DNA of 64,000 nt from NCBI GenBank assembly GCA_934757865.1, contig CAKVLS010000004.1:15981-79980 (forward strand), in the 5' to 3' direction. Shown here in pieces: positions 4,795-40,767 of the stretch. Each line of letters begins with the position of its first letter. Within the stretch, counting starts at the first letter, position 1. The notes beneath the pieces are model-generated. The model was not told the origin of the DNA and made no database searches. It saw nothing but the letters and a program-made list of their open reading frames with translations. Both the position numbers and the translations under genes were made by a program. The stretch is from an uncultured Clostridia bacterium. Its GTDB lineage: Bacteria > Bacillota > Clostridia > Christensenellales > UBA1242.

Positions 4795-4823
4795 AATTTT
4801 TGCTCCTTATATAAGTATAGTAA

Positions 4824-4852: not shown

Positions 4853-4864
4853 CACAAATGCAAA

Positions 4865-4897
4865 TAAAAAAGAGCAAGTTTGATTTTGCTCTTTTTG
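4865..4897 (-). terminator. terminator after plsY
   Basis: Stem AGAGCAA (4871-4877) / TTGCTCT (4886-4892), followed by a U-run on the minus strand. Confidence 0.7.
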
Positions 4898-6930: not shown

Positions 6931-6979
6931 AATTTACCTCTTATGTATTGTAGCACAAATATCACTAATATTCCAACAA

Positions 6980-9090: not shown

Positions 9091-9169
9091 AATATATGAT
9101 TATTCATTCGCTTGGCTTTTTATTATTTTTATCAATTACTTTTGCCTTCAAGCAATACAAAAACTATAA

Positions 9170-9196
9170 AAAATGATAGTTATATAATTATAACTA
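9170..9196 (-). terminator. weak AT-rich hairpin after nrdR
   Basis: Stem TAGTTATA (9177-9184) / TATAACTA (9189-9196) with a 4-nt loop, followed by TCATTTTTT on the minus strand. Confidence 0.35.
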
Positions 9197-9221
9197 CCAC
9201 TTAATTGCAATTTTTCATTTC

Positions 9222-9668: not shown

Positions 9669-9727
9669 TTGTTTTTTCCTCTATATGTAGTATATCAGTT
9701 ATTTTTTAACTAGTAAATTGATTTAGA

Positions 9728-10117
9728 TTATTTTTCGAGGTCTTCGTCTATTATTTTGCTTTTTAAGCTACTTGTATTCATATCTATAGGCTCAATAGGA
9801 GAGTTTTCTATAGAGGTGTTTTCCTTTTGCTTCGCTTCCAGCGTACAGACATTATCCTTGCATTTTTTGACTGGTGGAAGATTAAAAAGTTCAACAAGTA
9901 TTACATCATCGCCAATCTTACAAATATTCCTATACGGTATAAAAATATCTTGCCCAGACTTAAAAAAGCTAAAAAAAGATTTAGCCCCCGGAACTACTAG
10001 CCCCGTTACTCTACTCGTCCTTATATCCACTACCATATCTACTATATGCCCCAAGAGTCTGCCATCAACTATATTGATAACTTCTTTACACCTAAGGTCA
10101 AGAAAAGATGTCTCCAT
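9728..10117 (-). CDS. YlmC/YmxH-family sporulation protein (PRC-barrel)
   Basis: The DLRCKEVINIVDGRLLGHIVDMVVD segment is typical of the family. Sits directly downstream of sigG, as in other spore formers. Confidence 0.8.
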   Translation of the reverse strand: METSFLDLRCKEVINIVDGRLLGHIVDMVVDIRTSRVTGLVVPGAKSFFSFFKSGQDIFIPYRNICKIGDDVILVELFNLPPVKKCKDNVCTLEAKQKENTSIENSPIEPIDMNTSSLKSKIIDEDLEK

Positions 10118-10160
10118 ACAAGCTCCTATGGTATATAATATGACAAAATATCTAAATAAA

Positions 10161-10925
10161 TTACAAAGATTTTTTTAGCATTTCAAGAGCGTTCTTTTCT
10201 AGCCTTGAAACTTGCGCTTGACTTATACCTACAGACTCGGATATTTCTGTTTGAGTTTTGCCAAGAAAATATCTAAGTCTCAAAATCTCTTTTTCCCTCG
10301 TGCCTAGCTTTTCCATAGCTTCTTTTAGAGCGACATTTTCAAGCAGTTCTTCACAAGTATTTTTGTTATCACTAAGCTGTTCCATCACAAGCACTGTATC
10401 TATGCCGTCATTATATACCGGCTCATATAGGCTGACAGGGTCGGCTATTGCGTCTAGCGCAGACAAAACATCAATCACCGGAAGGTCAAGGTCTTTTGCT
10501 ATATCGTCAATAGATATGTCTTTGCCCATCTTAGAATATTTTTGGCGAGTAAGCAAAACTTTGTACGCAATATCTCTCAAACTTCTGCTAACCCTCACAC
10601 AAGTGCCCTCTCTAAGATAACGCCTTATCTCGCCTATAATCATAGGCACAGCATAAGTCGAAAACTTAACATTAAAACCCTCGTCAAAATTATCCATAGC
10701 TTTCATTAGTCCAACGCAGCCGACTTGAAAAATATCATCAATATTGTTACTGCTTGTACTAAATCTACTAACAATACTAAGTACAAGTCTCATATTGCCA
10801 CTAATAAAAAGGTCCCTTGCCTCTAAATCTCCACCTTTTAGCCTTGTCATAAGGCTTGCCATTTCTTTGCCCGAAAAATTAGGAAGGTCTGCAGTATTAA
10901 CGCCACAAATAACTACTCGTTTCAT
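10161..10925 (-). CDS. sigG: sporulation sigma factor sigma-G
   Basis: Very close to B. subtilis SigG as I recall it (ICGVNT, FQVGCVGLMKAMDNFD, FSTYAVPMIIGEIRRYLR, ISQAQVSRLEK). I moved the start from the track's GTG at 10937 to the ATG at 10925, because the candidate promoter would leave the GTG without a leader. Confidence 0.9.
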   Translation of the reverse strand: MKRVVICGVNTADLPNFSGKEMASLMTRLKGGDLEARDLFISGNMRLVLSIVSRFSTSSNNIDDIFQVGCVGLMKAMDNFDEGFNVKFSTYAVPMIIGEIRRYLREGTCVRVSRSLRDIAYKVLLTRQKYSKMGKDISIDDIAKDLDLPVIDVLSALDAIADPVSLYEPVYNDGIDTVLVMEQLSDNKNTCEELLENVALKEAMEKLGTREKEILRLRYFLGKTQTEISESVGISQAQVSRLEKNALEMLKKSL

Positions 10926-10945
10926 AAAATTACTCACTTTGTAGT

Positions 10946-10975
10946 TATTTTCCCCAATATACCAAAAAAATATGC
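10946..10975 (-). promoter_or_regulatory. candidate sigma-F/sigma-G type promoter of sigG
   Basis: Minus strand reads GCATA, 15 nt, GGGGAAAATA, against the sigma-F consensus GCATR-15-GGnRAYAMTW recalled from B. subtilis. Confidence 0.45.
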
Positions 10976-11051
10976 AAAAAAATCCCTAATTTACTAGGTA
11001 TGCTTAATCAAACATCTATCAAAAAACATAATTTATATATAAAATTATAAT

Positions 11052-11774
11052 TTATATTACTTTCCCTAAGTCCTTTTTGAGTTTGGCAAGAATTTTCTTC
11101 TCTATGCGTGATATGTAACTTTGGGATATGCCCATGCAGTCTGCAACTTCTTTTTGCGTAAGCTCGTCTTTTCCATTTAGTCCAAAACGCAAAGTCATAA
11201 TAGTCTGCTCTCTAAGGTGTAACTTACTTATAGCATCTTTTAATATTTGCTTTTCGGCACTAAGCTCAATATTTTTGCCAGTGCTCTCTCCCTCTGCAAC
11301 TAATATGTCCGCTAGCAATAGTTCGTTGCCGTCTTTATCAAAGTTTAGTGGCTCGTCAAGACTAACTTCTAGTTTTTGTTTGGTTACCTTTCTAAGATGC
11401 ATCAAAATTTCATTTTCAATACATCTTGAAGCGTAAGTCGCAAGCTTGATATTTTTTTCAAAGTTAAAAGTAGAAACTGCCTTGATAAGTCCAATAGAAC
11501 CTATTGACACTAGATCCTCAAGTTCCACACCAGTATTCTCAAACTTTTTGGCAATATAAATGACTAGTCTCAAATTTCTTTCGATAAGTGTAGACCTAGC
11601 ATTTTGGTCACCGGTAGACGCAAGTGCTATACACTCCCGCTCCTCACTCTCCGTTAGCGGCTCGGGCAAAACTTCTGTCCCGCAGATATACGCAACAAGC
11701 TTTTTTCTTGCACTTAATATATCTTTACTAAATAGCCTTCTAAAAAACATTTTAATTTTGCTAAAAATATTCAT
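11052..11774 (-). CDS. sigE: pro-sigma-E sporulation sigma factor
   Basis: N-terminal pro-sequence followed by YICGTEVLPEPLTESEE and sigma-70 regions 2 and 4. RBS GGAGGG. spoIIGA-sigE-sigG synteny. Confidence 0.9.
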   Translation of the reverse strand: MNIFSKIKMFFRRLFSKDILSARKKLVAYICGTEVLPEPLTESEERECIALASTGDQNARSTLIERNLRLVIYIAKKFENTGVELEDLVSIGSIGLIKAVSTFNFEKNIKLATYASRCIENEILMHLRKVTKQKLEVSLDEPLNFDKDGNELLLADILVAEGESTGKNIELSAEKQILKDAISKLHLREQTIMTLRFGLNGKDELTQKEVADCMGISQSYISRIEKKILAKLKKDLGKVI

Positions 11775-11867
11775 TTTACCCTCCGCTAAATTTTTCTTTA
11801 ATCATTAGTACATTTATGAATATTTTTTGTCTATCAAGCTAAATTTTGACTTATGTTGCAAATTTTA

Positions 11868-11935
11868 TCAATTATGACGCTTCATCAATTATGCTACTTA
11901 ATCTATTACGACACTTCATCTATTACAGACTTTTG
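11868..11935. repeat. four degenerate 17-bp tandem repeats in the spoIIGA-sigE spacer
   Basis: Units are TCAATTATGACGCTTCA, TCAATTATGCTACTTAA, TCTATTACGACACTTCA and TCTATTACAGACTTTTG. More degenerate ATCAAT-containing copies continue to about 11972. Confidence 0.7.
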
Positions 11936-11972
11936 TATCAATAAATTCATATCAATTTTCAAAATATCAATT

Positions 11973-12743
11973 TTAGTTAACCAGCATAACATTAAGTAGT
12001 GCCGAATACTCTCCAAAGTTGGCCCCAACTGATAGCCCCAAGAGACATTTTTTAGGACTTCCATCAACTAAGACCTCGTTTGGCTCAAATACTAACATTT
12101 TACTTTTTGTGCCGACAGAATTGTACTCCAAAAAGTGCGAGTTCTTAAGGCAAAAGTTTTTGCTGGCAAGATCAAAAAAGTTCACACCGGTAAGGTGCAA
12201 AAAAGTCTTATAATCAATTATCACTACCGGCAGTCCGCTAGTATCCTCTAAGGTATTGCCGCTATCTAGGTACGCCTTGCATCTATATGTATTGCTGTTA
12301 TAAGTTATAGTCACTTGATACTCAAATTTCTTTTGGCGTTTTATGTTATAAAAATGCTTTGACAAACAAAGCACAACAAGCGTGCTAAAAATAAGCGTCA
12401 AAACTCTCATCAAAAGTGCCCTATCCCCAAAGTTATCGGTTGCAACTTTTTTTGTGCCTAGGATAAAAATTATAAAGCAGAGATTGGTCAAAACCTTTGC
12501 TAAATATTTATTGCTACTTGTAACGAGTACGCCCAATATAACTACCAAAATTGTCAGCAATATTTCGCCAAAAAACGCAAGATTAAGTATAGGAATAGCC
12601 GCATATAGTATGCCGCCCAAGACGCCTAAAACTAGAGCTCTTATAAGAGCCTTATCACACAAAATTTTTGATGAAAGAAAGCTTGCCACAAAGAAAATCA
12701 CAAAGCCTTCTATTAGTAACGCTTCATATACTACCATATCCAA
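11973..12743 (-). CDS. spoIIGA: sigma-E processing peptidase SpoIIGA
   Basis: Five N-terminal TM helices, then the aspartic-protease motif YLDSGN. Located immediately upstream of sigE. Confidence 0.85.
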   Translation of the reverse strand: MDMVVYEALLIEGFVIFFVASFLSSKILCDKALIRALVLGVLGGILYAAIPILNLAFFGEILLTILVVILGVLVTSSNKYLAKVLTNLCFIIFILGTKKVATDNFGDRALLMRVLTLIFSTLVVLCLSKHFYNIKRQKKFEYQVTITYNSNTYRCKAYLDSGNTLEDTSGLPVVIIDYKTFLHLTGVNFFDLASKNFCLKNSHFLEYNSVGTKSKMLVFEPNEVLVDGSPKKCLLGLSVGANFGEYSALLNVMLVN

Positions 12744-12763
12744 ATTGTATGATATTTATAAGT

Positions 12764-12800
12764 CAAAAAAAAGACAAGTTTTAACTAAACTTGTCTTTTT
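12764..12800. terminator. terminator after ftsZ
   Basis: Stem AGACAAGTT (12772-12780) / AACTTGTCT (12788-12796). An 8-A run on the plus strand gives a U-run on the minus strand. Confidence 0.75.
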
Positions 12801-12829
12801 GTGTATTAAATAATTTTTAATTTTTATCC

Positions 12830-13999
12830 TTACTTGTTTTGCAATCTTCTAAGGAAAGGTGGAATATTGCTATCGTCAACTTTGATACGAGATGAGTTAG
12901 GAATAATATCTTCTGTTGGTCTTGCATTATTCATAAGTCTCTCTTCATAATCTTTTAGTTGATCTTCACTTGCAACTTGTCTCTTTGGCTCTTCTTCATG
13001 TTTTGCAGTGTTCATGATATTTTTTAGATCTCTTTGAGGTTCTTTTTGCTCTTTTCCGCCGCTAAAACCAGTAGCAATAACTGTAATTTCAACTTCGTCA
13101 CTAAATGCTTCATCAATACCAGCACCGAAGATAATGTTGCAGTCTGGGTCAACTACTTCTTTTACAAGAGCTACTGCCTCGTCAACTTCGTCAATAGCTA
13201 GGTCTAGTCCGCCCTTAACATTGATAAGTATACCAGTTGCGCCCTCAATTGTTGTTTCTAGTAGTGGGCTTTGGACAGCTTGTCTTACAGCCTCGATAGT
13301 TCTATTTTCATTCTTGCCTCTACCGATACCCATATGAGCAAGACCTTTGTTTTTCATGATAGATTTTACATCTGCGAAGTCTAGGTTAATTAGGCTAGGT
13401 ACTACGATAAGGTCAGATATACCTTGGATACCTTGTCTTAATACATCGTCTGCACATCTAAATGCCTCAACGATAGGTGTGCCCTTAGGTACGATACGAA
13501 GTAGTTTGTCATTAGGAATAATAACAAGTGTATCAACATATTTTTTAAGTTCGGCAATACCCTTTTCGGCATTTTCCATTCTTCTCTTGCCTTCGAAGTT
13601 AAATGGTTTAGTTACAACTGCGATTGTTAGTATGCCTAGTTCTTTTGCTATTTGAGCTACAACTGGAGCAGCACCTGTACCAGTTCCGCCGCCCATACCA
13701 GCAGTGATAAATGCAAGGTCACAATCTCTTAGCATCTCTGTCAAAACTTGTTTGCTCTCTTCAGCAGCTTTTTGACCAATCTCAGGCTCAGCACCTGCAC
13801 CAAGACCTTTTGTTAATTTTTCACCTATTTGAACTCTGTGAGTTGCCTTGCTCATAAGCAATGCTTGTTTATCTGTGTTGATTGCTACAAACTCAGCAGA
13901 TGTGATGTTGGCAGCTACCATTCTGTTTACGGCGTTGTTTCCGCCACCGCCGACACCTATAACTAAAATTTTTGCTACTTGACTAATGTTATTATTCAT
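12830..13999 (-). CDS. ftsZ: cell division protein FtsZ
   Basis: [10 protein letters not shown] and the tubulin signature [10 protein letters not shown]. Confidence 0.97.
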
Positions 14000-14009
14000 A
14001 ATGTATCTC

Positions 14010-15182
14010 CTATCTGTTAATAAATGCTCTTAATTTTGCAAAGAAACCTTTTGGTTTTCTTAATTTTTCTTGTTTTAGTGCAATGTCCAAAAGTCCTATA
14101 CTTGAAGAATTGTGAGGTTTATTTAGTTGTGGTATAGGTGGAACAACTATCTCAACATTCATACCAAGGTATTTGGCTAATAAATCTTTTGCACCTTTTA
14201 GGTAACAAAGTCCGCCACCAGTAAGTGAAATAGGTATGTAGTGAGGATATTCAAACTTACATGCGTTAAGGCACTTCAAAATATTTTTTGCTATCTCTTC
14301 TATTCTGCACTCTACTATCTCGCCGGCAGTTTTTGCAGAAATAGGAACTACTCCGTCCTCAGTTGCGACCTCATACATATCGTTACTGCCTGGATCTATA
14401 GAAAGCACGATTTTTCGTTTAAGTGACTCTGCCTCTGCGAATGTAATCTTAAGGCACTGCATAAGGTCAGCAGTAATATGTCCGCCACCCATCGAAAAGC
14501 TAGAAAGTGAAAGTATACCATCACCTCTAACAAGTGCAACTGTCGTAGTAATATATCCGCAGTCGACCAAGATAGCATATCTATCTCTAGTCTCTTCATC
14601 GAACAAATACTTAGCCTCAGCAAGTGCTGATGAAACATAAGTTGCTCTTGTGATAGATAGGTCTACCAAGAATTTTTCGATAAGCGAAATAAAACTATTC
14701 TCAGCCAAAATGTATGACATACAAGCAGTAATCTTGTTAGTCGCAAGACCTAGTGGATTAGTAACTTTTCCGTTATCGTCTAGTATGTAGTATATAGCCG
14801 ATTGGTTAATCACTGTGTGAGTTTTGTATTTGCCAAAGTCATTGCCCATAGCAAATAGTTCGTTGATGTCATCTTGAGTTACCATCTTGACCCTAGGAAA
14901 AGTCAAACTTGCGGTATTACAAACGCAAAATGAAAACTCGGTAGGAACACCAATATAAAGCTCTTTTATTTCAGTCTTTGAGTTAATCTCAGCATTGTTA
15001 ATTGCTAGTCCCATAGCTAGTTTTAGGTTCTCGGGTTCAAGGAATTTCCCGTCCATAAAGCCAGCATATTCGCTCTCGCCAACGCCTTTTATCGCAAAGG
15101 TGTTATTGACATCTTCTGAGCCAATAATTACTGAAATTTTTTCTGAGCCAAAATCTAAAATTGCAACATCTTTTTTTGCCAT
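14010..15182 (-). CDS. ftsA: cell division protein FtsA
   Basis: Actin-like ATPase directly upstream of ftsZ. Has a C-terminal amphipathic helix, [12 protein letters not shown]. Confidence 0.85.
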
Positions 15183-29624: not shown

Positions 29625-30917
29625 ATGAAAAAAAAGACTTGGTATCCACTGGATAACGCAGCTAAACTTTATCCCGCAATAAGCGGTCCAAGAAGACCTA
29701 ACCTATTTAGTTATAGTGTTAGATTGACCGAAAATGTAGACAAAAACTTGCTTGAAAAAGCCGTTAATATGTTATTAGAAAACAACCCTGCTTTTAAGGT
29801 AAAGCTTAGAAGAGGTATTTTTTGGTATTATCTAGAAAAGAACTATAAGCCTTTTGTTGTCAAAGAAGAAATTCCAAATTATCTAGGCTACTTTGACTTT
29901 GACGAAGAGAACAATGGATACCTATTTAGAGTTTTTTATAAGTATAACAAAATTTCTATTGTTAACTTTCATGCTCTATCAGATGGCGATGGAATACTTT
30001 CATTTTTCAAAAGTATCATCGCTATGTACCTTAGTCTAAAAGGTTATAAAATTGATAGTGAAAATTTAATTAAACCTCTTGATGCTCCATACACTAACGC
30101 AAACAGTGAAGACTCTTTTAACAAAGAATATTTGAAAAAGTGCAAGAAGCCTGAAAAAGAAAAAAAGGCGTTCAAAGTTGACGGGACTCCTTTTGACTAT
30201 GACGGATATGGCATTATTACGGCAAAAATTGACCTAGAAGGCCTAAAAACCTTATGTAAGACTTACAATGCTACTATCACTGAGTATCTTGTAGGGCTAT
30301 ATATGTATACAGCATATAATGTGTATGTTAGAAATAAAAAGGTAAAAAATAAACTAATTAGCATATTAGTTCCTGCCAATATGCGCAAGCGTTATAACAG
30401 TGCTACCCTTCGAAATTTCTCACTTTTTATTAGACCAAAACATGACTTTGGGGTAAAGGAACTTAACCTAGAAGAGTGCATCGAAACATGCAAAAAACAA
30501 ATGAAGGAAGGGCTATCAAAAGAGCGTCTTGACGCGCTAATCCATGACAATGTCAAGGTAGAAAAGAACTTCTTCATGAAGATAGTTCCTTTGTTTATAA
30601 AAGATGCTGTTATCCGCATGGTATATAACTATGTGGGAGAAAATTTGCAAACAGGCAACATCAGTAATATAGGTATTGTAGAGCTACCACAAAGTATGCA
30701 AAAGTATGTTACAGATTTTACAATGGCAATCGCCCCAACATACACCTGCAAGCAGCAACTAGGAGCAATAACATATAACGGCAACTTGTACATTACCTCA
30801 GCAAGAGAATTTGTTGAGACAAACTTTGAAAGAGAGTTTTTCACTACTCTATCAAAAAATAATGTACATGTAGAAATCTTTAGCAACAACTGGGAGGCAA
30901 AAAATGAAACATTGTAA
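29625..30917 (+). CDS. condensation/alcohol-acetyltransferase-like acyltransferase
   Basis: RBS AGGAG. HxxxDG-type catalytic motif in NFHALSDGDG at about one third of the length, as in NRPS C-domain/WES/AATase folds. Confidence 0.6.
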   Translation: MKKKTWYPLDNAAKLYPAISGPRRPNLFSYSVRLTENVDKNLLEKAVNMLLENNPAFKVKLRRGIFWYYLEKNYKPFVVKEEIPNYLGYFDFDEENNGYLFRVFYKYNKISIVNFHALSDGDGILSFFKSIIAMYLSLKGYKIDSENLIKPLDAPYTNANSEDSFNKEYLKKCKKPEKEKKAFKVDGTPFDYDGYGIITAKIDLEGLKTLCKTYNATITEYLVGLYMYTAYNVYVRNKKVKNKLISILVPANMRKRYNSATLRNFSLFIRPKHDFGVKELNLEECIETCKKQMKEGLSKERLDALIHDNVKVEKNFFMKIVPLFIKDAVIRMVYNYVGENLQTGNISNIGIVELPQSMQKYVTDFTMAIAPTYTCKQQLGAITYNGNLYITSAREFVETNFEREFFTTLSKNNVHVEIFSNNWEAKNETL

Positions 30918-31575
30918 ATATTGTAATGTCGATGTCAGCACCAGTGAAAAGTATTGTCCACTGTGCTACAACATCTTAGAGGGCGATGACGAAAAGACAG
31001 TGGACTTTTATCAAAAGCGTCAATCTAATGACAAGACACATAAGACACATTATCTATTGTCAAAAATATTTTTTATGATAACGCTTGCAATAATTGCAAT
31101 ATGCGTATTTATCAATGTTCTTACTTGGGACGGAATAGTTTGGAGTTTGCTTGTAGGTGTTAGCATTGCATATGTCTGGATATTTGTCGCTCATACTATA
31201 CTTTCAAAAAGAAGCATCTTTGAAAAAATACTTCTTCAGCTTGTAGGTATAGTTGCTATAGTTGTCGTATGTAATATATTGTCAAAAGGTAATTGGCTAC
31301 TTAACTATGTATTACCATCTATTGAACTTGCAGCAGCGATTACACTTGCTTTTGTGACTTTTATACTACGAAACAAGTATAGAGTTATCTTACCATTTTT
31401 CTTGGTATATATTTTACTAATAGTTACTTCTATTGTCTTACTTGCTGTCAAAGCAGACACTTTTATGATACTTAGCGAAATAAATATAATAGTATGCGGA
31501 CTAGCAATAGTAGGCACACTTATCTTCGGGCACAAAACTCTAAAAACCGAACTTGCCAAAAAGTTCCATTTATAA
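30904..31575 (+). CDS. zinc-ribbon plus polytopic membrane protein (DUF6320-like)
   Basis: N-terminal CKYCN...CPLC ribbon followed by about 5 TM helices. RBS GGGAGG. Overlaps the preceding gene by 14 nt. Confidence 0.55.
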   Translation: MKHCKYCNVDVSTSEKYCPLCYNILEGDDEKTVDFYQKRQSNDKTHKTHYLLSKIFFMITLAIIAICVFINVLTWDGIVWSLLVGVSIAYVWIFVAHTILSKRSIFEKILLQLVGIVAIVVVCNILSKGNWLLNYVLPSIELAAAITLAFVTFILRNKYRVILPFFLVYILLIVTSIVLLAVKADTFMILSEINIIVCGLAIVGTLIFGHKTLKTELAKKFHL

Positions 31576-31660: not shown

Positions 31661-31693
31661 AAAAAAAGACTAGCGTATAACTAGTCTTTTTTT
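31661..31693. terminator. bidirectional terminator shared by the convergent units
   Basis: Stem AGACTAG (31667-31673) / CTAGTCT (31681-31687), with a 7-A run before and a T-run after. Confidence 0.75.
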
Positions 31694-32250
31694 ATTGCTA
31701 TTGACAATTCAAAATCAGGATACGACTTAGTGATAAACTCAAAATCATCACTTCTATCAAGTATGTCCTTGGTATTATAGAATACGCTTGACCCTTCGCA
31801 CTTAACAAGAGATTCCTTTTTGACAAAGTACTTAGTTAGCGTTCTACTATCAGGGCAGGACTTTTTCTCGCTATCATTTAGGATATAGTCTTTAAGCGAT
31901 GTATCTTTTATTATATCCTCTATATCTACGCCCACTTCTCTATCACATATCACGCAACATACAGCGCTGTCTGTGTGGCTAATGTTAAAGTAGCAACTAT
32001 CTATATAAGGTTTGCCATTTTTGTTATACGAATACTCAGGGAGCACTAGCGTCCCAAATCTATCATACAAAAGTTTAACCAAAAGCATATAACCTAGCGT
32101 TGATAGTATGTTACTAGTTTTGTTTTTGCTAAGTCTTTTTTGCATAGGCTCGCTAAAATACTTGTGCATCTTCTCAATAGTCAAGTCGTCCACACTAAGC
32201 GGATTAGTTAGCACCAAGCAATCGCAAAAGTTACAAGCAGCGTCTTTCAT
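31681..32250 (-). CDS. Sfp-type 4'-phosphopantetheinyl transferase
   Basis: FNISHTDS ... GVDIEDI and the W/KEA-like motif FVKKESLVK. 189 aa. Overlaps the upstream gene by 20 nt. Confidence 0.75.
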   Translation of the reverse strand: MKDAACNFCDCLVLTNPLSVDDLTIEKMHKYFSEPMQKRLSKNKTSNILSTLGYMLLVKLLYDRFGTLVLPEYSYNKNGKPYIDSCYFNISHTDSAVCCVICDREVGVDIEDIIKDTSLKDYILNDSEKKSCPDSRTLTKYFVKKESLVKCEGSSVFYNTKDILDRSDDFEFITKSYPDFELSIAIKKD

Positions 32251-33196
32251 AATTCTCTAACGCCTTATCAAGATTAACTGAATATTCTGTCCCTCTAAAA
32301 TCTGTAAGAGATGGACACTCAGCTTTTATATAATCAGCTAGATATTTTGTTATCTTTTGAGCACCTTGCAAATTAACATGCATGCCTTTATCTCTAAAGT
32401 CTTGCTCATAATCAAGACCGTAGCTCATGTGATTTTCGTTAAAGTCAATAAGGTCTATGCCCTCTTTCTTAATTAGTTTCAAAAGACCTTTTTGCTTAGA
32501 ATAATTCCAATTCTTTGTTGTAGGCATAACGACAAATGCAAGTTTGATATTATTCTTTTTGCATAACTTTATCATCTTTTTAATTTTTTGTTTGTTGTGC
32601 AATGTAAAGTTTGCCGCTTTTGACTTTGGGCTACCCATATAAGACTCATCGTTTGATACCTTAGTTATATCTTTACGCATATAGTAGCCTTTGCTGATAT
32701 CATAATATTTTGCATCTGTAGGTGCCGTGAAGAAGTCTTTTGCTTTTAGATTTTTCCAGCGAGAGTGATATGTATATATGTTATAAAATATTGGCAAGTC
32801 ATCAAAGATATTTGTTGTATTTCTACTATACAAACTCTCTGGGCTAATCAAAATCATCTTAGGATGATGAGTATTTATAAACTTTTCCATATTCCTATAG
32901 ATACCACTTGCACTCAAAGTATCAGGGTTATTTACGCCACAGTTATATGCCGAAAAGCCATATTCTTTGTATAGCTCCATAGGTATAAATCCGTTTTTAA
33001 CTTCTGAGCTTCCAAAGAAGCCAATCTCAACCTTGCCATTTTCTTTTGCGGTATAAGTTTGACCTTGCCAATACTTCTCTCCGCCTTTGTCTGTGTAACT
33101 TTTTGTGATCAAAATATTGTTAATATATAAAAGCATAAGAATAGGTATAAGTAAAATTATAAATACTTTTAGGGTTATAAGTAATGCTTTTTTCAT
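32231..33196 (-). CDS. DltD-like membrane-anchored SGNH-type acyl transfer protein
   Basis: N-terminal TM helix, the GSSE serine motif (FFGSSEV) and a C-terminal DKGMHVN block. The start at 33196 is 1 nt after the MBOAT stop; in-frame ATGs at 33211 and 33232 are alternatives. Confidence 0.55.
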   Translation of the reverse strand: MKKALLITLKVFIILLIPILMLLYINNILITKSYTDKGGEKYWQGQTYTAKENGKVEIGFFGSSEVKNGFIPMELYKEYGFSAYNCGVNNPDTLSASGIYRNMEKFINTHHPKMILISPESLYSRNTTNIFDDLPIFYNIYTYHSRWKNLKAKDFFTAPTDAKYYDISKGYYMRKDITKVSNDESYMGSPKSKAANFTLHNKQKIKKMIKLCKKNNIKLAFVVMPTTKNWNYSKQKGLLKLIKKEGIDLIDFNENHMSYGLDYEQDFRDKGMHVNLQGAQKITKYLADYIKAECPSLTDFRGTEYSVNLDKALENYERRCL

Positions 33197-33197
33197 A

Positions 33198-34766
33198 CTA
33201 GAACGCTCCATAAATAGGGTCTGGAGGTACATAACCTACTCCGTATGCCCCAAAAACTATTATTATAAACACATATACTTCAATAAGCACAATTCCCCAG
33301 AAGATAGATATCTTAAATAACTTTTCGTATATGTCGACTTTTAGATATTTCATTATTCCTACAGCTATAACAGGCACTAGACATACGCACATAGCAACTA
33401 TATCTTGCCAGTTGACAAGGTCGTTTGCGATTGAGGCTTTGCCTGGGCTAAAAATTCTGCCAAACATACCAAAAGCATCGTTAATAGTAACCGCTCTAAA
33501 TAGTAGCATACCAATACCAACCAAAATCGAGGTCTTAACAACTCTTAGAGCAAATAGAACTTTTGAATCAGCAGAAACATGAATCTTTTCGTACAGTTTC
33601 TTAAATAAAGGTTCAAGTAACATATGTAAAAACATAAGCACTAGATAATATACGCCATACAAAACATACTTAAAACTAGCGCCGTGCCACAATCCTGTCA
33701 AAAGCCAAACAGCACTCATAGATAGTACAGTAGGCACAAATACTTGCATAAAAGCGCCAAACTTAGTGTTTTTCTTATTTAGTTTTTGATACACAGGGCT
33801 CATTGATATTGGGTAAAAGACATAGTCTTTGAACCACCTACCAAGAGATATGTGCCACCTACTCCAAAACTCGCCAACATCTTGTGATAAAAATGGTGCG
33901 TTGAAGTTTTCTGCAAGATTGACACCAAACATATGGCTAACGCCTTGCGCCATATCTATACACCCCGAAAACTCGCAGAATAATTGTATAGTAAAGCAAA
34001 TAACTCCGCAAATAATCATAAATCCGTTGTAACTAGCATAATTTCTAAATATTTCGTCCGCTATAGCGCCCGCTCTTGGCACTATCATAATTAGCTTAAA
34101 GATACCAAAACAAATTCTTGCAAGTCCTTTTTTGATATTATTTGCATCAAAGTCTGTTCCGTCATATAGGCTATACGCTATCTCGTTATATTTGCTAAAA
34201 GGTCCTTCTAGTAATTGTGGAAAGTAGCAAACAAAAAGCCCTACTCTTAAGATATTTTTGTCCGCAGGGCAAACACCTCTATAAACATCTACTATATAGC
34301 TAATCGCTTGCAAGGTATAATAAGATATACCAAGAGGCAAAACTATACTTCTAAGAGGTATATTACCCGCTCCGCCAAATAGCCTTTCAATGCCATTAAA
34401 AATGCCAGCAAAAAAGTTGGCATACTTCAAAAATGCAAGTAAGCCAAGATTGATAATGATGGTACCAAATACGCACCATCTCTTTTTTACTTTATACTTT
34501 GCTTTTAGGGCTTTCTTCTGGTCTTTTTCTAAGCCTTCTTTTTTCTTCTCAAAGTCGCTCTGCAACTTACCTATCAAAAGTCCAAATAGATATATTGACA
34601 ATGCAGTGCCTATCATATAAAAAGCTAGTAGCCCACTATAAACAAACACCGCCGCCATACTTAGCACAAGTAGCACTATAAATCTAAATCTCTTAGGCAA
34701 AAGATAATATATGATAGTACCAAGAGCCGCAAAGATAAGGTAGTAGAATAAAAGTTCTGTACTCAA
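33198..34766 (-). CDS. MBOAT-family membrane O-acyltransferase (DltB/AlgI/PatA-like)
   Basis: Catalytic-His signature FWSRWHISLGRWFKDYVFYP and a later LWHG. 522 aa, with a Lys-rich cytoplasmic loop (KKKEGLEKDQKKALKAKYKVKKR). Confidence 0.85.
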   Translation of the reverse strand: MSTELLFYYLIFAALGTIIYYLLPKRFRFIVLLVLSMAAVFVYSGLLAFYMIGTALSIYLFGLLIGKLQSDFEKKKEGLEKDQKKALKAKYKVKKRWCVFGTIIINLGLLAFLKYANFFAGIFNGIERLFGGAGNIPLRSIVLPLGISYYTLQAISYIVDVYRGVCPADKNILRVGLFVCYFPQLLEGPFSKYNEIAYSLYDGTDFDANNIKKGLARICFGIFKLIMIVPRAGAIADEIFRNYASYNGFMIICGVICFTIQLFCEFSGCIDMAQGVSHMFGVNLAENFNAPFLSQDVGEFWSRWHISLGRWFKDYVFYPISMSPVYQKLNKKNTKFGAFMQVFVPTVLSMSAVWLLTGLWHGASFKYVLYGVYYLVLMFLHMLLEPLFKKLYEKIHVSADSKVLFALRVVKTSILVGIGMLLFRAVTINDAFGMFGRIFSPGKASIANDLVNWQDIVAMCVCLVPVIAVGIMKYLKVDIYEKLFKISIFWGIVLIEVYVFIIIVFGAYGVGYVPPDPIYGAF

Positions 34767-34768
34767 AA

Positions 34769-34993
34769 TTAATCTTCCAATTTTTCAACAAGTTTTTTGA
34801 TAGCGGCTACAGAGTTAAAGTTTTCTGGTAGCATATCCATAGGAGTGATCTCAATATCAAACTCATCATTTAGTTTCATAACAAGTTTCAAAATATTGAT
34901 AGATGTTAGTATTCTGTCATCAACAAGTGCTGTTTGTTTCTCAACATCAACATCTGGTAAAATCTCTTTTAGTATTTTTGTAATCTCTTCCAT
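34769..34993 (-). CDS. DltC-like acyl/aminoacyl carrier protein
   Basis: 74 aa, acidic. LVDDRILTSINILKLV aligns by eye to DltC EEGLLDSFGTVELL, placing Ser at the phosphopantetheine site. Confidence 0.7.
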   Translation of the reverse strand: MEEITKILKEILPDVDVEKQTALVDDRILTSINILKLVMKLNDEFDIEITPMDMLPENFNSVAAIKKLVEKLED

Positions 34994-35002: not shown

Positions 35003-36502
35003 CTACTTTATATATGTATTTTTTAACGCCTTTCTGTCTACTTTTCCATTGGCGTTGTATGGTAAAAGTTGCTCTTTATAAACTTTTGCTGGCATCATAT
35101 AATAAACTAGTTTTTTATTAAGTGTCGCCATCAATTCGTCCACTTTGATTCTGCCGGTGTATATAAGCACTATTTCATCGTTTTTGTCATCAAATAGGCA
35201 AACGGCATCTTGCACCTTCTCAATAGCTACGATGGTGTTTTCTATTTCGCCTAGTTCTATTCTATAACCCATATGTTTAATCTGGTAATCTGCTCTACCG
35301 CAAAATTCCATTTCGCCATACTTGTTGTACTTGACTAAATCGCCAGTCTTGTATACAACCTCTGGATAGTCACTTTGAATAGGATTTTGGACAAAGTTTT
35401 CTTTATTCTTAGCGTCATTTTTGTAATAACCATGAGCTAAGAAGCTACCTCTAATATATAGCTCGCCCATCTCATCTTGAGCTGTAACTCTTTTGCCATC
35501 ACTTACTATCATGCAATCACAATTTCGGCAAGCTATACCTATAGGCAAACTCTCGTCATTTCTAAACTTTCTATTAACCTCATAGTAACAGCATATATCA
35601 GTTGCTTCTGTTGGTCCAAATAAGTTGTAGTACTTGACGCCTTTTAGGTTGTTTCTCCAATAGTTAAGAGGTTTATTGTGCATTACTTCGCCCGCAAAAA
35701 GTACTTTTTTAAGGTGTTCTGGCTTTTGATACTTAAACATATCAATATTTGCCATGATGCTAATAGCAGATGGTACCCAATAGATTGTATTGACTTTTTG
35801 CTCGTTCATGAATTGTATTGCTTTTAGCGGAAAGGCAAAATATTTAGTTGGGATAATTACATAAGTCGCCCCAGCAAAAATAGTTGCAAAAAAGTCAGAC
35901 ACTGACATACTGAAATATAGTGGCGTTTGGCTACCAAAAACAGTCTTGTTGTTTATTCTAAATGTATCTATAAACCACTCAATATAACTTATAACATTGC
36001 CATGACTAAGCACTGTGCCCTTTGGAACGCCAGTTGAGCCTGATGTAAATAGTATATAAAGTGGGTCGGTACTAATAATATCATCAAGATTTGCAGAGTT
36101 TTTTGCTTCTACGCAGTCATCAATACAAATTACATTTTTTGATTCAAAGTTTTGGCAAAAGTTGTCTTTTGTATCCTTAGAAACTATAACAGCACTTGGG
36201 CTCAAAACATCAAGTATCTTATCTAATCTATCTTTTGGTGAGTGAGTATCTAGCACAGTGTAGACATTGCCACTATACACAGCACCCATCATTGCCGCCG
36301 TAAGATCGCATGATCTATCTATAAATAAAGCAATATTTTTGTGCTTTTCGCCGTTTAGACTCCCAAAAATACTGCTCGCAATTTTCTTAGCTTTATCTTT
36401 TAGCTCGCCAAATGTAAGGCTAGAACTTTCATCTACAATAGCAACTTTGTTATAATTTTTTGCTACCGTCTTCTCAAAATAATTTATGATATTGTTTAGC
36501 AT
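35003..36502 (-). CDS. DltA-like stand-alone adenylation enzyme (ANL family)
   Basis: Core motifs TSGSTGVPKG, GPTEAT, YKTGDL, GRADYQIKHMGYRIELGEIE and NGKVDRK. At 499 aa it is DltA-sized. Confidence 0.85.
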   Translation of the reverse strand: MLNNIINYFEKTVAKNYNKVAIVDESSSLTFGELKDKAKKIASSIFGSLNGEKHKNIALFIDRSCDLTAAMMGAVYSGNVYTVLDTHSPKDRLDKILDVLSPSAVIVSKDTKDNFCQNFESKNVICIDDCVEAKNSANLDDIISTDPLYILFTSGSTGVPKGTVLSHGNVISYIEWFIDTFRINNKTVFGSQTPLYFSMSVSDFFATIFAGATYVIIPTKYFAFPLKAIQFMNEQKVNTIYWVPSAISIMANIDMFKYQKPEHLKKVLFAGEVMHNKPLNYWRNNLKGVKYYNLFGPTEATDICCYYEVNRKFRNDESLPIGIACRNCDCMIVSDGKRVTAQDEMGELYIRGSFLAHGYYKNDAKNKENFVQNPIQSDYPEVVYKTGDLVKYNKYGEMEFCGRADYQIKHMGYRIELGEIENTIVAIEKVQDAVCLFDDKNDEIVLIYTGRIKVDELMATLNKKLVYYMMPAKVYKEQLLPYNANGKVDRKALKNTYIK

Positions 36503-36523: not shown

Positions 36524-36552
36524 ATTATACAAGCCTATATTATATATGTCAA
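36524..36552 (-). promoter_or_regulatory. consensus sigma-A promoter of the Dlt-like operon
   Basis: Minus strand reads TTGACA (36552-36547), 17 nt, TATAAT (36529-36524). About 22 nt upstream of the start codon. Confidence 0.65.
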
Positions 36553-36757: not shown

Positions 36758-37216
36758 TTATTTATCTTCTTTGATAACGGTAACAGTACCATCTTGAGCT
36801 ATTTCAATTTTGTCGCCAGTTTCTACATATTTTAAGAATTTGTCGCCTAGTCTATCAATAGCTATGATTGGGCTGTTTTCCCAGTTACGAGCAAGGATAA
36901 TACCTGAGCATGCTAGAGAGTCAATATCCTCAGAAAATAGCATTGCGCTTGGGTTAATCTTCATAGAACAAACTGTTTGGATAACAAGTCCGCCTGTTGT
37001 AGAACCTATAGTTTTTGGCAAGCATAAAATTTTGCCTGTTAGGTTCTTTTTATAGATATCTGGGTTGTTTTGGTCAGATGCAATTACTTGCTTAGCGTTT
37101 TTTAGAGCGCTCTTTTGGAAAGTAGCAAGTGTGTTAACACCTTGTCTTGATACGATAGCTTCGCCTTTTAGCTCGCCGCCACCTATTACTCTACCCTTAA
37201 AAGTCTTAGTACTCAT
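36758..37216 (-). CDS. aconitase X swivel-domain protein (DUF126), small subunit
   Basis: GKILCLPKTIGSTTGG segment typical of DUF126. Start trimmed to the ATG at 37216, after AAGGAGGG and 1 nt past the large-subunit stop. Confidence 0.75.
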   Translation of the reverse strand: MSTKTFKGRVIGGGELKGEAIVSRQGVNTLATFQKSALKNAKQVIASDQNNPDIYKKNLTGKILCLPKTIGSTTGGLVIQTVCSMKINPSAMLFSEDIDSLACSGIILARNWENSPIIAIDRLGDKFLKYVETGDKIEIAQDGTVTVIKEDK

Positions 37217-37217
37217 A

Positions 37218-38495
37218 TTATTTACCCTCCTTGCCTGTGATAATATTAAGTATATCTTCATCTTTATAATATCTAGCAGAAGAATATGTTCTTAGTTTGT
37301 TAGAAGAAGTGATGATTGGAGCTTTGCCAGCTATTGGGTTGTTGGTGTACATTAGCGGACAGATAGAAGAAACTCTAACTCCAGTCTTAACTAGCTCTTT
37401 ATATAGATCAGTCTTTTCAAACTCTTTGCGAATAGCTGGGCTAGTAGTTAAGATTGTTCTTACTCTTACCTTCGACTTTCCGCTCTCTTTTAGGCCATTT
37501 AGAATATTGTTAGCCCAAGAGTGAAGTTGCGAAGTTGTAAGATGTGGACAGCCTATAAAGCATAGTTTTGGCTTTGCATCTTTGTTCTTCCAAAGGATTG
37601 GATATGACTTATAAACTCTCTCAATCTCAGCATCATCAATAACATAAGTTTTTGCTTTGTCTTTGATTAAAGTTTTCTTTAGCTCTTTTGCTTCTGGGGT
37701 CAAGTTGTCAACATGGTATAGACCAACTGCACCATTTGAAGCACTAGCAGCGCCCATATCTTTTAGATATGCCTTAGCGTTGTCGTCTAGCTTCTTGCCA
37801 AGGAATTTATCAAGGCCAACGATGTATGGAACATCTTCCATAACTTTAAGGCCTATTGCACTACCTAGTATTTGAGCCTCAGGAAGTTTAGAAGTCTTAA
37901 CCTCTATTACCCAGTCAGCTTTTCTACCCTCATCAGTAAGTAGTCCAAATTCTGGAACTTTACCAACGATAGCTGAGAAAATATCTAGCATACCGCTATT
38001 TCTGTTGCATCTAGCACCAAGTACTGAGTTAGCATATACAACTGCAGAACTCTCTGCCCAAGAAAGAATATCGCCTTTCTTAGGAGTGTTGCCTACTTCG
38101 TCTAGGTAACAAGTACATGTAAAGCCGTCAGTAGTTTTTAGACCAAGCTTCTTTAGTTGCTCTTCGTATCTAGCTTGTTGGCTGTACATAATTTTGCTAA
38201 AAATTAGTTTGTTTAGAATATTACATTTTACATTTTTGTAATCGATAGGTCTTGGGTCTACGGTAAATGGGTATTTAGTTTTTAGGCCAGCAGCGATTAG
38301 CTCGTCCATTGTTCTAAATAGTGGTTTTAGTAGTCCAATACCAAAAGATGTTACAAGGTGTCCGTCATGAGTTACTGGGACAAGTCTTTTTGCTCCAAAA
38401 GCGTCACCAAACTCAACGATTGTTTTCATAACTTTGGCAAGAGTTTCGCCTTGTTTTCCGTCAAGTATCTCTTGCTCTTCTTTAGTTAGTTTCAT
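37218..38495 (-). CDS. aconitase X catalytic-domain protein (DUF521), large subunit
   Basis: The N-terminus MKLTKEEQEILDGKQGETLAKVMK is characteristic of DUF521/AcnX. 425 aa with several conserved-looking Cys. Confidence 0.75.
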   Translation of the reverse strand: MKLTKEEQEILDGKQGETLAKVMKTIVEFGDAFGAKRLVPVTHDGHLVTSFGIGLLKPLFRTMDELIAAGLKTKYPFTVDPRPIDYKNVKCNILNKLIFSKIMYSQQARYEEQLKKLGLKTTDGFTCTCYLDEVGNTPKKGDILSWAESSAVVYANSVLGARCNRNSGMLDIFSAIVGKVPEFGLLTDEGRKADWVIEVKTSKLPEAQILGSAIGLKVMEDVPYIVGLDKFLGKKLDDNAKAYLKDMGAASASNGAVGLYHVDNLTPEAKELKKTLIKDKAKTYVIDDAEIERVYKSYPILWKNKDAKPKLCFIGCPHLTTSQLHSWANNILNGLKESGKSKVRVRTILTTSPAIRKEFEKTDLYKELVKTGVRVSSICPLMYTNNPIAGKAPIITSSNKLRTYSSARYYKDEDILNIITGKEGK

Positions 38496-38505
38496 TTATT
38501 TCCTC

Positions 38506-40767
38506 CTAAATGCTCAAACATTTTCTATAAGCGCCCTTAACAGCAGTAAATACTTTGCCTGGCATCAAACTATCGCCAACATTGTATATTTCTGGAGCGG
38601 CATTTGATTTTACTAAGCCATAATACAAATCATCATTAGAAGATATTCCGCAAGCAAATACTACTACATCGCTCTCGACATAGATATCTTGATACTCGTC
38701 TTTAACCTTCTTAGCAAGTGGGTTAGGAATATTTTCTGGCAAAATTGGTTGCCATGTATTAAATGGATTTGGAACAGTCTTAGAAACATTTTTCTTAACA
38801 GTAACGGTCTTATCTGCATTGATAGATTTTACAAATGAGCAGTTGTGAACTTTTACACCATACTTCTCTAGGTAATGCAAAATATGTCCACGGTTAGCAG
38901 TACATGAGTTAGCCATTAGGTTAGGTGTAGCTTCGATGATTGTTACATCTTTGTTTAGCTCAGTCTTTAAATAATATGCTAGCTCGCAGCCGCTATCACC
39001 ACCACCGATGATTGCAAATGTATCTGCTTTGCTATATTTTTTAGGATTATTAAGAACATCAACAACATAAGTTACATTTTTGTTCTCAACGCCGTCGATT
39101 GGAAGGAATCTTTGTTTTGTACCAGTTGCAACTACGATAGCATCGTATTTTGCAGCCTTTAACATTTTTTCATCAGCGGCTACGCCTAGATTTAGAGTGA
39201 AGTTTTTGTTCTTCTTCATACCAGTAACTAAGTTGTTAAGATACTCAACATAGTTAGCTAGTTCATACTTAAATTTTGGAACAGAAGCTGCTATGATTGT
39301 ACCACCAATCTTTTTAGATTTTTCGTATAGGTCAACTTTGTGTCCTCTTGCAAGCAATGTCTTAGCTGCTACCACGCCCGCAGGGCCAGCACCAATAACA
39401 GCAATCTTTTTGCTCTTTTCTGCCTTAGGAATATCTCTCAAAAGTTCTTCTTCAAAAGCAGTTCTTGGGTTAACCGCACATTGTGGGTGTCCGCCGTCTA
39501 CAAACTCTTTGATACAACCTTCGTGACAACCGATACATGGGATGATGTCTTTTGTATTACCAGCATAAGCCTTGTTTACCCAGTCTGGGTCTGCAAGTAG
39601 TGGTCTACCTAGCATTATCATGTCGCACATATTATCTCTTAGAGCTTTTTCAGCAAGGTCTGGATAACCTAACTTACCTACAGCAACTACAGGAACTTCT
39701 ACGCCTGCATTTGACAAAATATTATTCTCTTTGAAGTAGTCTTTTACAAGTTTAGAAACTTCTAGGAAACAGCCACTTGGCATACTAGCAGGAGGATGAG
39801 GAAGCCACCAGTTATCATAGCAACCTAGGTCAACGTCAAACATATCAACGCCCGCTTTAACAAGGTTAGCCATATAATCTAAAGTCTCGACTATTCTTCT
39901 CTCGTTTCTGTATTTACGAAGAGCTTTTACGCCTTTCATCTTATCGCCATAAGTTGCGTTAAGAGCAAGTGAAAGGTCAATTCTATACATAATAGGATAA
40001 TTGTTTCCAACTCTCTTACGAATTTGTTTAACGCAGTCGATACCAAATTGTTGCCAATTAGCATATCTACCAGCAAGTCTTCTGTTAAATGCTGGGTTAG
40101 TCAATTGCTCCATTAGGTAGCCTTCGTGACCATGCAAATACACACCATCAATGTTACAAGCTTTTGCGTCAGCAGCACCTTGTCCCATATTTTTGACTAT
40201 CTTCTTTACTTTCCCATCGGTGATAGTAGCACATGGAATCTCTGGAATATAAAAGTTAGGGTTCCAGCTAGCTGAAACAGGAAGTTTAAGGCTGTTAACT
40301 AAGCATTGTGGGTTGCCTACTCTACCAAGGCCAGCAGTTAGCTGAATAAATAATTTAGCACCATGACTATGACAAGCATATGCAAGGTCTCTCCAGCCAG
40401 CAAGTACTGTACGGCTACGATCTATTCTTGGGAAGTAAGATAATTTTCCAAGCTCAGTGATAGATGGATCAATTCCATGAGATACAGGCACAAGACCTGT
40501 TGTGATAAGACCAACGCCGCCCTTAGCACGCTCTTCAAAGTATGCAAGCATTTTTGCGTTAGGTCTACCAGTCTCCTCACACATAGAAATGTTGCCCATA
40601 GGTCCCATTACCAAACGGTTTTTTATGGTAAGTTTGTTAACTTTTATAGGACTAAACATCTCTTTGTAAGGATAAAGTTTATTGGTCATTTTTGGGGTTT
40701 CGCCCTTCAAAAACCAATTACCGAAACTTTCTTCTAAATTTTGAAGAAGTTGTTCTTTGTTTTCCAT
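38506..40767 (-). CDS. enoate-reductase / 2,4-dienoyl-CoA-reductase-like Fe-S flavoenzyme (OYE domain plus FAD/NAD(P) domain)
   Basis: OYE start NRLVMGPMG. A 4Fe-4S motif C-x2-C-x3-C-x11-C (CIGCHEGC...C). Dinucleotide folds VIGAGPAGV and IIGGGDSGCE. Confidence 0.8.
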   Translation of the reverse strand: MENKEQLLQNLEESFGNWFLKGETPKMTNKLYPYKEMFSPIKVNKLTIKNRLVMGPMGNISMCEETGRPNAKMLAYFEERAKGGVGLITTGLVPVSHGIDPSITELGKLSYFPRIDRSRTVLAGWRDLAYACHSHGAKLFIQLTAGLGRVGNPQCLVNSLKLPVSASWNPNFYIPEIPCATITDGKVKKIVKNMGQGAADAKACNIDGVYLHGHEGYLMEQLTNPAFNRRLAGRYANWQQFGIDCVKQIRKRVGNNYPIMYRIDLSLALNATYGDKMKGVKALRKYRNERRIVETLDYMANLVKAGVDMFDVDLGCYDNWWLPHPPASMPSGCFLEVSKLVKDYFKENNILSNAGVEVPVVAVGKLGYPDLAEKALRDNMCDMIMLGRPLLADPDWVNKAYAGNTKDIIPCIGCHEGCIKEFVDGGHPQCAVNPRTAFEEELLRDIPKAEKSKKIAVIGAGPAGVVAAKTLLARGHKVDLYEKSKKIGGTIIAASVPKFKYELANYVEYLNNLVTGMKKNKNFTLNLGVAADEKMLKAAKYDAIVVATGTKQRFLPIDGVENKNVTYVVDVLNNPKKYSKADTFAIIGGGDSGCELAYYLKTELNKDVTIIEATPNLMANSCTANRGHILHYLEKYGVKVHNCSFVKSINADKTVTVKKNVSKTVPNPFNTWQPILPENIPNPLAKKVKDEYQDIYVESDVVVFACGISSNDDLYYGLVKSNAAPEIYNVGDSLMPGKVFTAVKGAYRKCLSI

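Follow-up and report, generated by a model that had tools for sequence, protein, structure and literature searches.

Background

D-alanylation is a textbook means by which Gram-positive bacteria tune their surface charge, their resistance to antimicrobial peptides and their signalling to the host. The DltA/DltC/DltB/DltX/DltD machinery (PDB: 3E7W, 3DHV, 3FCC, 7VHV and 7R27) comprises a stand-alone adenylating (A) enzyme with a small carrier protein, an MBOAT protein, DltB, with two conserved histidines, a tyrosine acyl-shuttle motif and an anchored SGNH-fold transferase. Here we compare with it a five-gene operon found in a 64,000-nucleotide stretch of the genome of an uncultured Clostridia bacterium (contig CAKVLS010000004.1, positions 15,981 to 79,980; the window hereafter), whose first gene codes for a DltA-like adenylating enzyme, P0001, with a serine at the place of the aspartate that binds the alpha-amino group of the substrate. 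The operon belongs to a family that we term Ser-type and would represent a variant form of Dlt-like envelope acylation; full-text searches of the literature for the motif, for the specificity-code strings and for carrier/MBOAT systems of the Dlt-like kind turned up no account of the family.

Two aspects of the described systems bear directly on this comparison. In DltA the alpha-amino group is contacted by Asp197, Gly295 and Val301, the last through its backbone carbonyl (PMC11253843), and Cys268/269 acts as an enantiomer gate that keeps out L-Ala (PMC4176424). The FxYxxF acyl-shuttle is carried by the microprotein DltX in Dlt and is fused to the MBOAT protein in the acetyl-CoA-dependent PatA/AlgI systems, and in the published view MBOAT proteins with a fused shuttle use acyl-CoA, without a carrier protein (PMC12148441).

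The substrate pocket of P0001

The features of the P0001 gene that concern its substrate are the following:

35003..36502, minus strand: adenylating enzyme P0001, stand-alone, 499 residues; intact open reading frame with the ANL fold of the adenylation domains (A domains) of non-ribosomal peptide synthetases (NRPSs)
35900..35914, minus strand: A4 core motif F197-S198-M199-S200-V201, from the sequence and its alignment to LgrA and DltA
35909-35911, minus strand: Ser198 (AGT), at the position of Asp235 in GrsA and Asp197 in BcDltA, from the sequence and its alignment
35693..35695, minus strand: Ala270, code position 301, aligned with DltA Cys268/269, the cysteine being gone in P0001
35597..35599, minus strand: Asp302 (GAT), code position 330, aligned with BcDltA Val301 and invariant in the family
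35042..35044, minus strand: Lys487, aligned with the carboxylate/adenylate-binding lysine (Lys517 of GrsA, Lys492 of BcDltA), which is kept

A sequence-only reading of this locus had reported that residues 197-201 of the enzyme are FSMSV, and the reverse complement of 35900-35914 is TTC AGT ATG TCA GTG, which confirms the observation. Its further proposal, made by eye, that the serine occupies the Asp235/Asp197 position is borne out by gap-free alignments to LgrA, BsDltA and BcDltA. In an HMMER comparison with the solved LgrA, YFSMSVSDFF lies opposite IFDISVAEIF and SFSFDGSALDIF, the FDxS motifs of the two LgrA modules; five near-identical LgrA entries dominated the PDB alignments of P0001 and of a further locus, L211. 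The true BsDltA and BcDltA sequences were then taken from PDB alignments and aligned with the Ser-type family using MAFFT, which introduced zero gaps from A3 to A5 and equates S198 with Asp196 (Bs)/Asp197 (Bc), A270 with Cys268/269, D302 with Val300/301 and K487 with Lys491/492. The alignment thereby reproduces the published DltA numbering of Asp196/197, Cys268/269 and Lys491/492 (PMC4176424), and the true B. subtilis DltA sequence has the motif FSFDLSV, as that reading had quoted it. Thus, it is Ser198, not an aspartate, that these sequence alignments place at the 235-equivalent position. A shifted aspartate that might rescue the A4 motif was also considered and rejected, as Asp203 is an ordinary acidic residue that DltA has as well (FDLSVMD).

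In other respects P0001 is an intact adenylating enzyme of the ANL/NRPS type. The A3 (TSGSTGVPKG), A5 (NLFGPTE), A7 (YKTGD), A8 (GRADYQIKHMGYRIELGEIE) and A10 (NGKVDRK) motifs are all intact, and the protein matches the Pfam AMP-binding domain with an e-value of 2e-63. It narrowly exceeds the cut-off of the NCBIfam amino-acid-adenylation model TIGR01733 (322.8 bits; cut-off 317.4) and falls well short of those of the DltA models TIGR01734 (271.4 bits, or 270.4 in the genome search; cut-off 559.85) and NF003417 (281.1 bits; cut-off 476). An AlphaFold2 model (pLDDT 87.6) has as its nearest folds in PDB PheA (1AMU), Txo2, LgrA and DltA.

The ten-residue specificity code that the sequence-only reading had proposed to extract could be obtained for the whole family and reads S-M-S/T-S-L-A-L-D-I-K. 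For P0001 and BcDltA the individual positions are:

Code position 235: S198 in P0001, Asp197 in BcDltA
Code position 236: M199 in P0001, Leu198 in BcDltA
Code position 239: S202 in P0001, Met201 in BcDltA
Code position 278: S245 in P0001, Ser244 in BcDltA
Code position 299: L268 in P0001, Leu267 in BcDltA
Code position 301: A270 in P0001, Cys269 in BcDltA
Code position 322: L294 in P0001, Thr293 in BcDltA
Code position 330: D302 in P0001, Val301 in BcDltA
Code position 331: I303 in P0001, Ala302 in BcDltA
Code position 517: K487 in P0001, Lys492 in BcDltA

The assignment of position 278 is in part based on what we take to be the local sequence of GrsA, while the remaining positions are anchored by the DltA numbering and the A4 and A5 motifs. 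Seven of the ten positions differ from DltA (Asp to Ser, Leu to Met, Met to Ser, Cys to Ala, Thr to Leu, Val to Asp and Ala to Ile), with 278, 299 and Lys517 being kept; position 299 is Leu in P0001 and BcDltA and Met in BsDltA. The Ser-type ligase hence differs from DltA in having Ser for Asp197, Ala for the gating Cys269 and Asp for Val301.

Conservation and phylogeny of the pocket

To examine how widely this pocket is shared we used a set of 121 sequences that includes the 120 best homologues, which are 48-54% identical and come mainly from Clostridia of gut and rumen metagenomes. All 121 have a serine at the 235-equivalent position, and the above code is almost invariant across the set despite an identity of about 50%: the equivalents of Asp302 and of Pro297 (of the GPTE signature) are each found in 121/121, that of Lys487 is likewise invariant, and that of Ala270 is an alanine in 117/121. 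As every D235-type sister family has an aspartate where all 121 have a serine, the presence of Ser198 is far beyond chance.

In a maximum-likelihood tree the Ser-type family is monophyletic (SH-aLRT 99) and is nested within a clade of Clostridial ligases that has 100% support and is separate from canonical DltA. All other branches of this clade have Asp235, namely the family with the code DNLSLCLDAK, the Lys239 families (DAKS../DVKS..) and L015; hence, the change from aspartate to serine is derived and happened once. Relative to the DNLSLCLDAK family five code positions have changed (235, 236, 239, 301 and 331), and residues 198, 199 and 303 are among just 13 positions at which the two families are cleanly distinct. 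That these five changes were followed by fixation speaks for a switch of specificity maintained by purifying selection, and not for decay. On the evidence of these alignments the P0001 pocket appears to have been re-tooled a single time in evolution and to have been frozen thereafter.

Two further searches were of less use in this regard. A locus search for the family alignment using the generic TSGSTGxPK pattern gave matches of which those listed were mostly NRPS modules, though it yielded the sister cassettes L011-L017. A search of 1.84 billion representative sequences returned only giant NRPSs, by virtue of their summed multi-domain scores, and nothing informative on the Ser-type family.

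Organization of the operon and a predicted acylation pathway

The ligase gene is the first of five on the minus strand, followed by those for the carrier, the MBOAT protein, the SGNH protein and the transferase, with the whole running from a promoter-like site to a hairpin terminator. The remaining features of the operon are:

36524..36552, minus strand: perfect TTGACA-17-TATAAT promoter-like site, 22 nucleotides upstream of the ligase start codon
34769..34993, minus strand: carrier protein P0002, 74 residues; Pfam PP-binding, with weak matches to DltC and acyl carrier proteins
34901-34903, minus strand: carrier Ser31, the phosphopantetheine-attachment residue, invariant in 89/89 homologues
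33198..34766, minus strand: DltB-like MBOAT protein P0003, 522 residues; Pfam MBOAT, with a match to TIGR04091 (LTA_dltB) at 1.2e-39 that is below the cut-off
33201-33218, minus strand: PIYGAF, the last six residues of P0003, a fused FxYxxF-type acyl-shuttle motif with Tyr519 at 33210-12
32231..33232, minus strand: membrane-anchored SGNH-fold protein P0004, 333 residues, in the position of DltD/PatB, from AlphaFold2 and Foldseek
31681..32250, minus strand: Sfp-type 4'-phosphopantetheinyl transferase P0005, 189 residues; Pfam ACPS, with NCBIfam matches of the AusB, AcpT and EntD-like kinds
31661..31693, strand not assigned: hairpin terminator common to the operon and the downstream convergent genes, from the sequence

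The ligase-carrier-MBOAT-SGNH order is conserved across the Ser-type family. In P0003, for which TIGR04091 is the sole NCBIfam match, His305 and His361 are conserved in 75-77 of 77 sequences, and its C-terminal end conforms to [F/P/L][I/L]Y[A/G]xF in 74/76 homologues, the first position in P0003 being Pro, not Phe. P0004 has no Pfam match at 1e-3 and is not recognised from sequence profiles alone, GDSL giving a faint match; however, its AlphaFold2 model (pLDDT 83) matches TesA and GDSL hydrolases in Foldseek searches (E ~1e-5), and the family invariants are G74, S76 (in FGSSE), D263, H285 and N287, along with an N-terminal transmembrane helix. Its translation probably starts at Met13, near 33196. 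The P0005 gene overlaps that of P0004 by 20 nucleotides. Neither a dltX gene nor a leader RNA would fit into the interval between the promoter-like site and the ligase start, and the G+C content of the operon is 34.8%, as against 35.4% for the window.

Taken by analogy, these parts would make the operon a carrier-fed Dlt-like envelope acylation system. It resembles Dlt in its stand-alone A enzyme and small carrier, in its DltB-like MBOAT protein with two conserved histidines, in the tyrosine acyl-shuttle motif, in the anchored SGNH-fold protein and in the occurrence, in some genomes, of teichoic-acid genes and two-component systems nearby. It differs from Dlt in its gene order (A-C-B-D') and in having an Sfp-type transferase of its own; moreover, there is no DltX gene in the Ser-type operon, the motif instead being fused to an MBOAT protein about 120 residues longer, and the SGNH protein P0004 is shorter and is not recognised by DltD profiles. 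With the PatA/PatB and AlgI/AlgJ-type systems it shares the C-terminal FxYxxF-type shuttle on the MBOAT protein (FIYANF in PatA, PIYGAF in P0003 and FIYAQF or FIYGQF in its relatives) and the separate SGNH partner. Those systems, however, are fed by acetyl-CoA and have neither ligase nor carrier (PMC12148441), in contrast to the carrier-fed Ser-type system. As a PIYGAF-bearing MBOAT protein here stands alongside its own ligase and carrier, the operon is a hybrid, carrier-fed as in Dlt and with a fused shuttle as in PatA.

By analogy with Dlt and PatAB we infer the following pathway, in which the catalytic steps, the acid and the polymer that receives it are all predictions. The Sfp-type transferase would prime the P0002 carrier, and P0001 would adenylate a small carboxylic acid and thioesterify it onto the phosphopantetheine of Ser31. 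The MBOAT protein would then hand the acyl group to Tyr519 of its own C-terminal PIYGAF shuttle at the outer membrane face, from where the anchored SGNH protein would accept it on Ser76 and esterify a surface polymer, which is probably teichoic-acid-like. Genes that recur as neighbors of the cassette code for a TagF-type glycerophosphotransferase, an IspD-family cytidylyltransferase that we read as TarI-like, histidine-kinase/OmpR pairs and ABC exporters; this genomic context points to a teichoic-acid-like acceptor.

Nature of the cargo

We consider the odds to be somewhat in favor of P0001 being an active carrier-loading adenylating enzyme whose cargo is a small acid lacking a canonical alpha-ammonium group, with a hydroxy acid as the foremost candidate. 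The cargo is most likely small, polar and universally available, and our first guess would be lactate, glycerate or another alpha-hydroxy acid, for which Ser198 and Asp302 would serve as hydrogen-bond partners. D-lactate and glycerate correspond to alanine and serine with a hydroxyl in place of the amino group.

A domains specific for non-amino acids (EnSyn A1 and engineered TycA; StsA/CesA; DhbE and EntE) resemble P0001 in having Asp235 replaced. They differ from it in the replacing residue, which is Ala/Gly in the hydroxy-acid, Ile/Val in the keto-acid and Asn in the aryl-acid domains as against Ser in P0001, and in lacking the additional invariant aspartate at position 330. Since the hydroxy-acid domains have a small residue (Ala/Gly) at 235 (PMC11253843), the serine of P0001 is nearest to that class, though it is polar. 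In the keto-acid domains (StsA/CesA) the proline of GPTE has become a methionine (PMC11253843), and assignment of P0001 to the alpha-keto-acid class was rejected, because Ser is not hydrophobic and Pro297 is kept. The aryl-acid ligases (DhbE/EntE) combine Asn235 with an A5 motif of the form QQVxFMAEGL, as against Ser198 and NLFGPTE (PMC11253843). DhbE, which the sequence-only reading had invoked, is a valid precedent for replacement of the aspartate, but P0001 is otherwise unlike it; with no Asn235, an unaltered A5 motif and a score of 88.9 bits against TIGR02275, far below the cut-off of 723, the aryl-acid class was likewise rejected.

D-alanine itself is an unlikely cargo for P0001, because both Asp197 and the gating Cys are lost, the profiles of DltA give low scores and the enzyme belongs to a clade apart from DltA. 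To this extent the sequence-only reading, which took the serine to argue against an alpha-amino acid such as D-Ala, is well supported; its wider exclusion of alpha-amino acids is not established, on account of Asp302 and the A5 motif, and we regard it as plausible but unproven. Asp302 is invariant and lies beside the alpha-amino site, such that an amino group may still bind, and its side chain could plausibly be a substitute carboxylate within reach of an amine or hydroxyl on, or close to, the alpha position. It also weighs against a hydroxy acid that the natural hydroxy-acid domains, with Ala/Gly at 235, have no Asp at 330, that the A5 motif (N-x-F/Y-G-P-T-E) is like those of amino-acid enzymes, as is the TIGR01733 score, and that no gene for a hydroxy-acid dehydrogenase or other supply enzyme is recurrently linked to the cassette. 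The D-2-hydroxyacid dehydrogenase gene beside the cassette of Clostridium sp. CAG:264 was rejected as a clue to supply, as such a gene (2-Hacid_dh) recurs in just 2-3 of 124 loci.

The foremost alternative is that P0001 still activates an alpha-amino acid (such as D-Ala, Gly, Ser or L-Ala), with the carboxylate having moved from position 235 to 330. There Asp302, along with the two backbone carbonyls that are kept, would hold the amino group in an altered orientation. We deem this possible but rather unlikely. The aspartate in question, found in 121/121, aligns with BcDltA Val301, itself an alpha-amino contact, and P0001 keeps Lys517 and an A5 motif of the amino-acid type, with a TIGR01733 score above the cut-off. 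McyG further shows that Asp235 is not strictly required for amino acids (PMC11253843), which are also the most universally available of small acids, in line with the lack of a linked supply gene. However, the nearest sister family (DNLSLCLDAK) already has Asp330 in addition to Asp235, showing that Asp330 did not arise to compensate for the loss of Asp235; the enantiomer-gating Cys is gone; and the concerted change and subsequent freezing of five pocket residues relative to this sister family looks like a specificity switch.

The complement of other ligases in these genomes cuts both ways. DltA scoring above the cut-off was found in none of 50 genomes with the cassette, nor in the 1.17-Mb source genome, and in most carriers, where canonical DltA is absent, the Ser-type system could be the only route of aminoacylation. 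Against this, two genomes (G024 and G016) encode a separate DltA-like ligase of the Asp235/Cys301 type with its own carrier, in G024 in a cassette of its own just 3.4 kb from the Ser-type one and in G016 on a different contig, which argues for different cargoes. Among the neighbors of the cassette we found no recurrent racemase, decarboxylase or aminotransferase, and Rfam searches of 36 loci of the family recovered no riboswitch and no T-box. In view of the lack of a linked supply gene, riboswitch or T-box, the cargo must be a metabolite available even to genomes of 1 Mb.

A beta- or omega-amino acid, such as beta-alanine or GABA, would place its distal amine on Asp302 and yield a cationic ester mimicking D-alanylation. 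Acidic residues at 330/331 go with side-chain amines (Dab, Orn), and the code for beta-Ala has no Asp at 235; two-component systems also adjoin the operon in ~15% of loci, recalling the dltRS-type control of charge modification. Yet PanD is absent from 45/51 genomes with the cassette, including the source genome, and the structurally characterised beta-amino-acid enzymes VinN, IdnL1 and CmiS6 keep the Asp235 equivalent (PMC11253843), both of which make beta-alanine less likely. As the bulky Met199, Leu294 and Ile303 also allow little depth for longer chains, we hold such a cargo to be improbable. It is hardly credible that P0001 is a decaying or non-catalytic paralogue in which the serine marks a loss of function, for which nothing speaks beyond the missing Asp and the absence of the operon from 40/41 relatives (which makes it dispensable), while its catalytic motifs are all intact, its pocket is invariant across at least 120 species and its partner genes are intact behind a perfect consensus promoter.

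Distribution and significance of the Ser-type family

The degenerate DNA pattern for QTP[FL]YFSMS[VI]xD matched at least 120 species-representative genomes. Among the matches listed, the carriers are mainly Eubacteriales/Oscillospirales and Lachnospirales, with further instances in uncultured Bacilli, Erysipelotrichia and metagenome-assembled genomes labelled "Mollicutes"; cultured carriers are Gemmiger formicilis, Lentihominibacter hominis, Olegusella massiliensis, Vallitalea longa and Clostridiaceae bacterium M8S5. A small non-amino acid as the cargo would lead to a broader and distinctly more tentative proposal, namely that at least 120, and probably several hundred, gut Firmicute species might esterify a teichoic-acid-like polymer with such an acid (e.g. 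D-lactate or glycerate) via a carrier. If true, this would be an unreported decoration of the envelope, and one of a swappable set of Dlt-like cassettes diversifying the surface chemistry of gut anaerobes.

This large sister family of the D-alanylation machinery, which is common among anaerobes of the human and animal gut, has a re-tooled and strictly conserved pocket that is devoid of the amino-binding Asp. Identification of the cargo would define a new surface modification in abundant commensals such as uncultured Bacilli and species of Gemmiger, Coprococcus and Eubacterium. It would also broaden the acyl-tyrosine shuttle mechanism to include an MBOAT protein that bears a fused shuttle and is fed by a carrier, and would offer a natural example of substrate recognition by A domains in the absence of Asp235.

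Within its own lineage the cassette is sporadic, being found in the source genome alone among 41 relatives examined from the same genus, family and order. This genome, with an estimated completeness of 99%, is of a size comparable to those of its family-level relatives (0.8-1.3 Mb), and at 1.17 Mb it maintains a five-gene envelope-acylation operon complete with its own 4'-phosphopantetheinyl transferase. One congener without the Ser-type operon has a Lys239-type cassette at an unrelated locus (L227, G051:C2:22000-40000, positions 5192-9656), with the code DAKSFVLGIK and an A5 motif that reads GSSE, not GPTE; most other relatives have neither type. The cassettes thus behave as accessory, interchangeable modules of surface chemistry that vary within a genus.

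Related cassettes and neighboring genes

The sister Clostridial ligase-carrier-MBOAT cassettes belong to the same clade and share the architecture of the Ser-type cassette at 34-40% identity. They differ from it in that all keep Asp235, and in the DNLSLCLDAK family there is additionally a GNAT tailoring gene, which lies between the ligase and carrier genes (L223, positions 8001-11779; L225, positions 6477-11080). The presence of this gene suggests that an aminoacyl cargo is N-acetylated on the carrier prior to its transfer by the MBOAT protein.

In G024 two ligase/carrier modules lie adjacent to each other on the minus strand (L229, G024:C6:74000-93000, positions 3876-14051). The first combines genes for VanW, a DltA-like ligase (DLASLCSFAK), Wzy_C, a protein of unknown function, TraX and a carrier, while the second has the Ser-type ligase, carrier, MBOAT and SGNH genes. 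The TraX/Wzy_C module is a different, as yet undescribed, carrier-fed system.

On either side of the operon in the window are genes of other kinds. At 29625-31575 on the plus strand, a gene for a 430-residue protein with a faint match to the Condensation domain (E 0.057) overlaps one for a DUF6320 membrane protein; this pair is convergent with the Dlt-like operon, with which it shares the terminator, and was not seen beside the cassette in the other genomes inspected. Upstream, at 36758-40767 on the minus strand, is an operon coding for a 753-residue flavoenzyme (Oxidored_FMN/Pyr_redox_2) followed by AcnX and an AcnX swivel-domain protein, which a terminator at 36722-36689 parts from the ligase operon.

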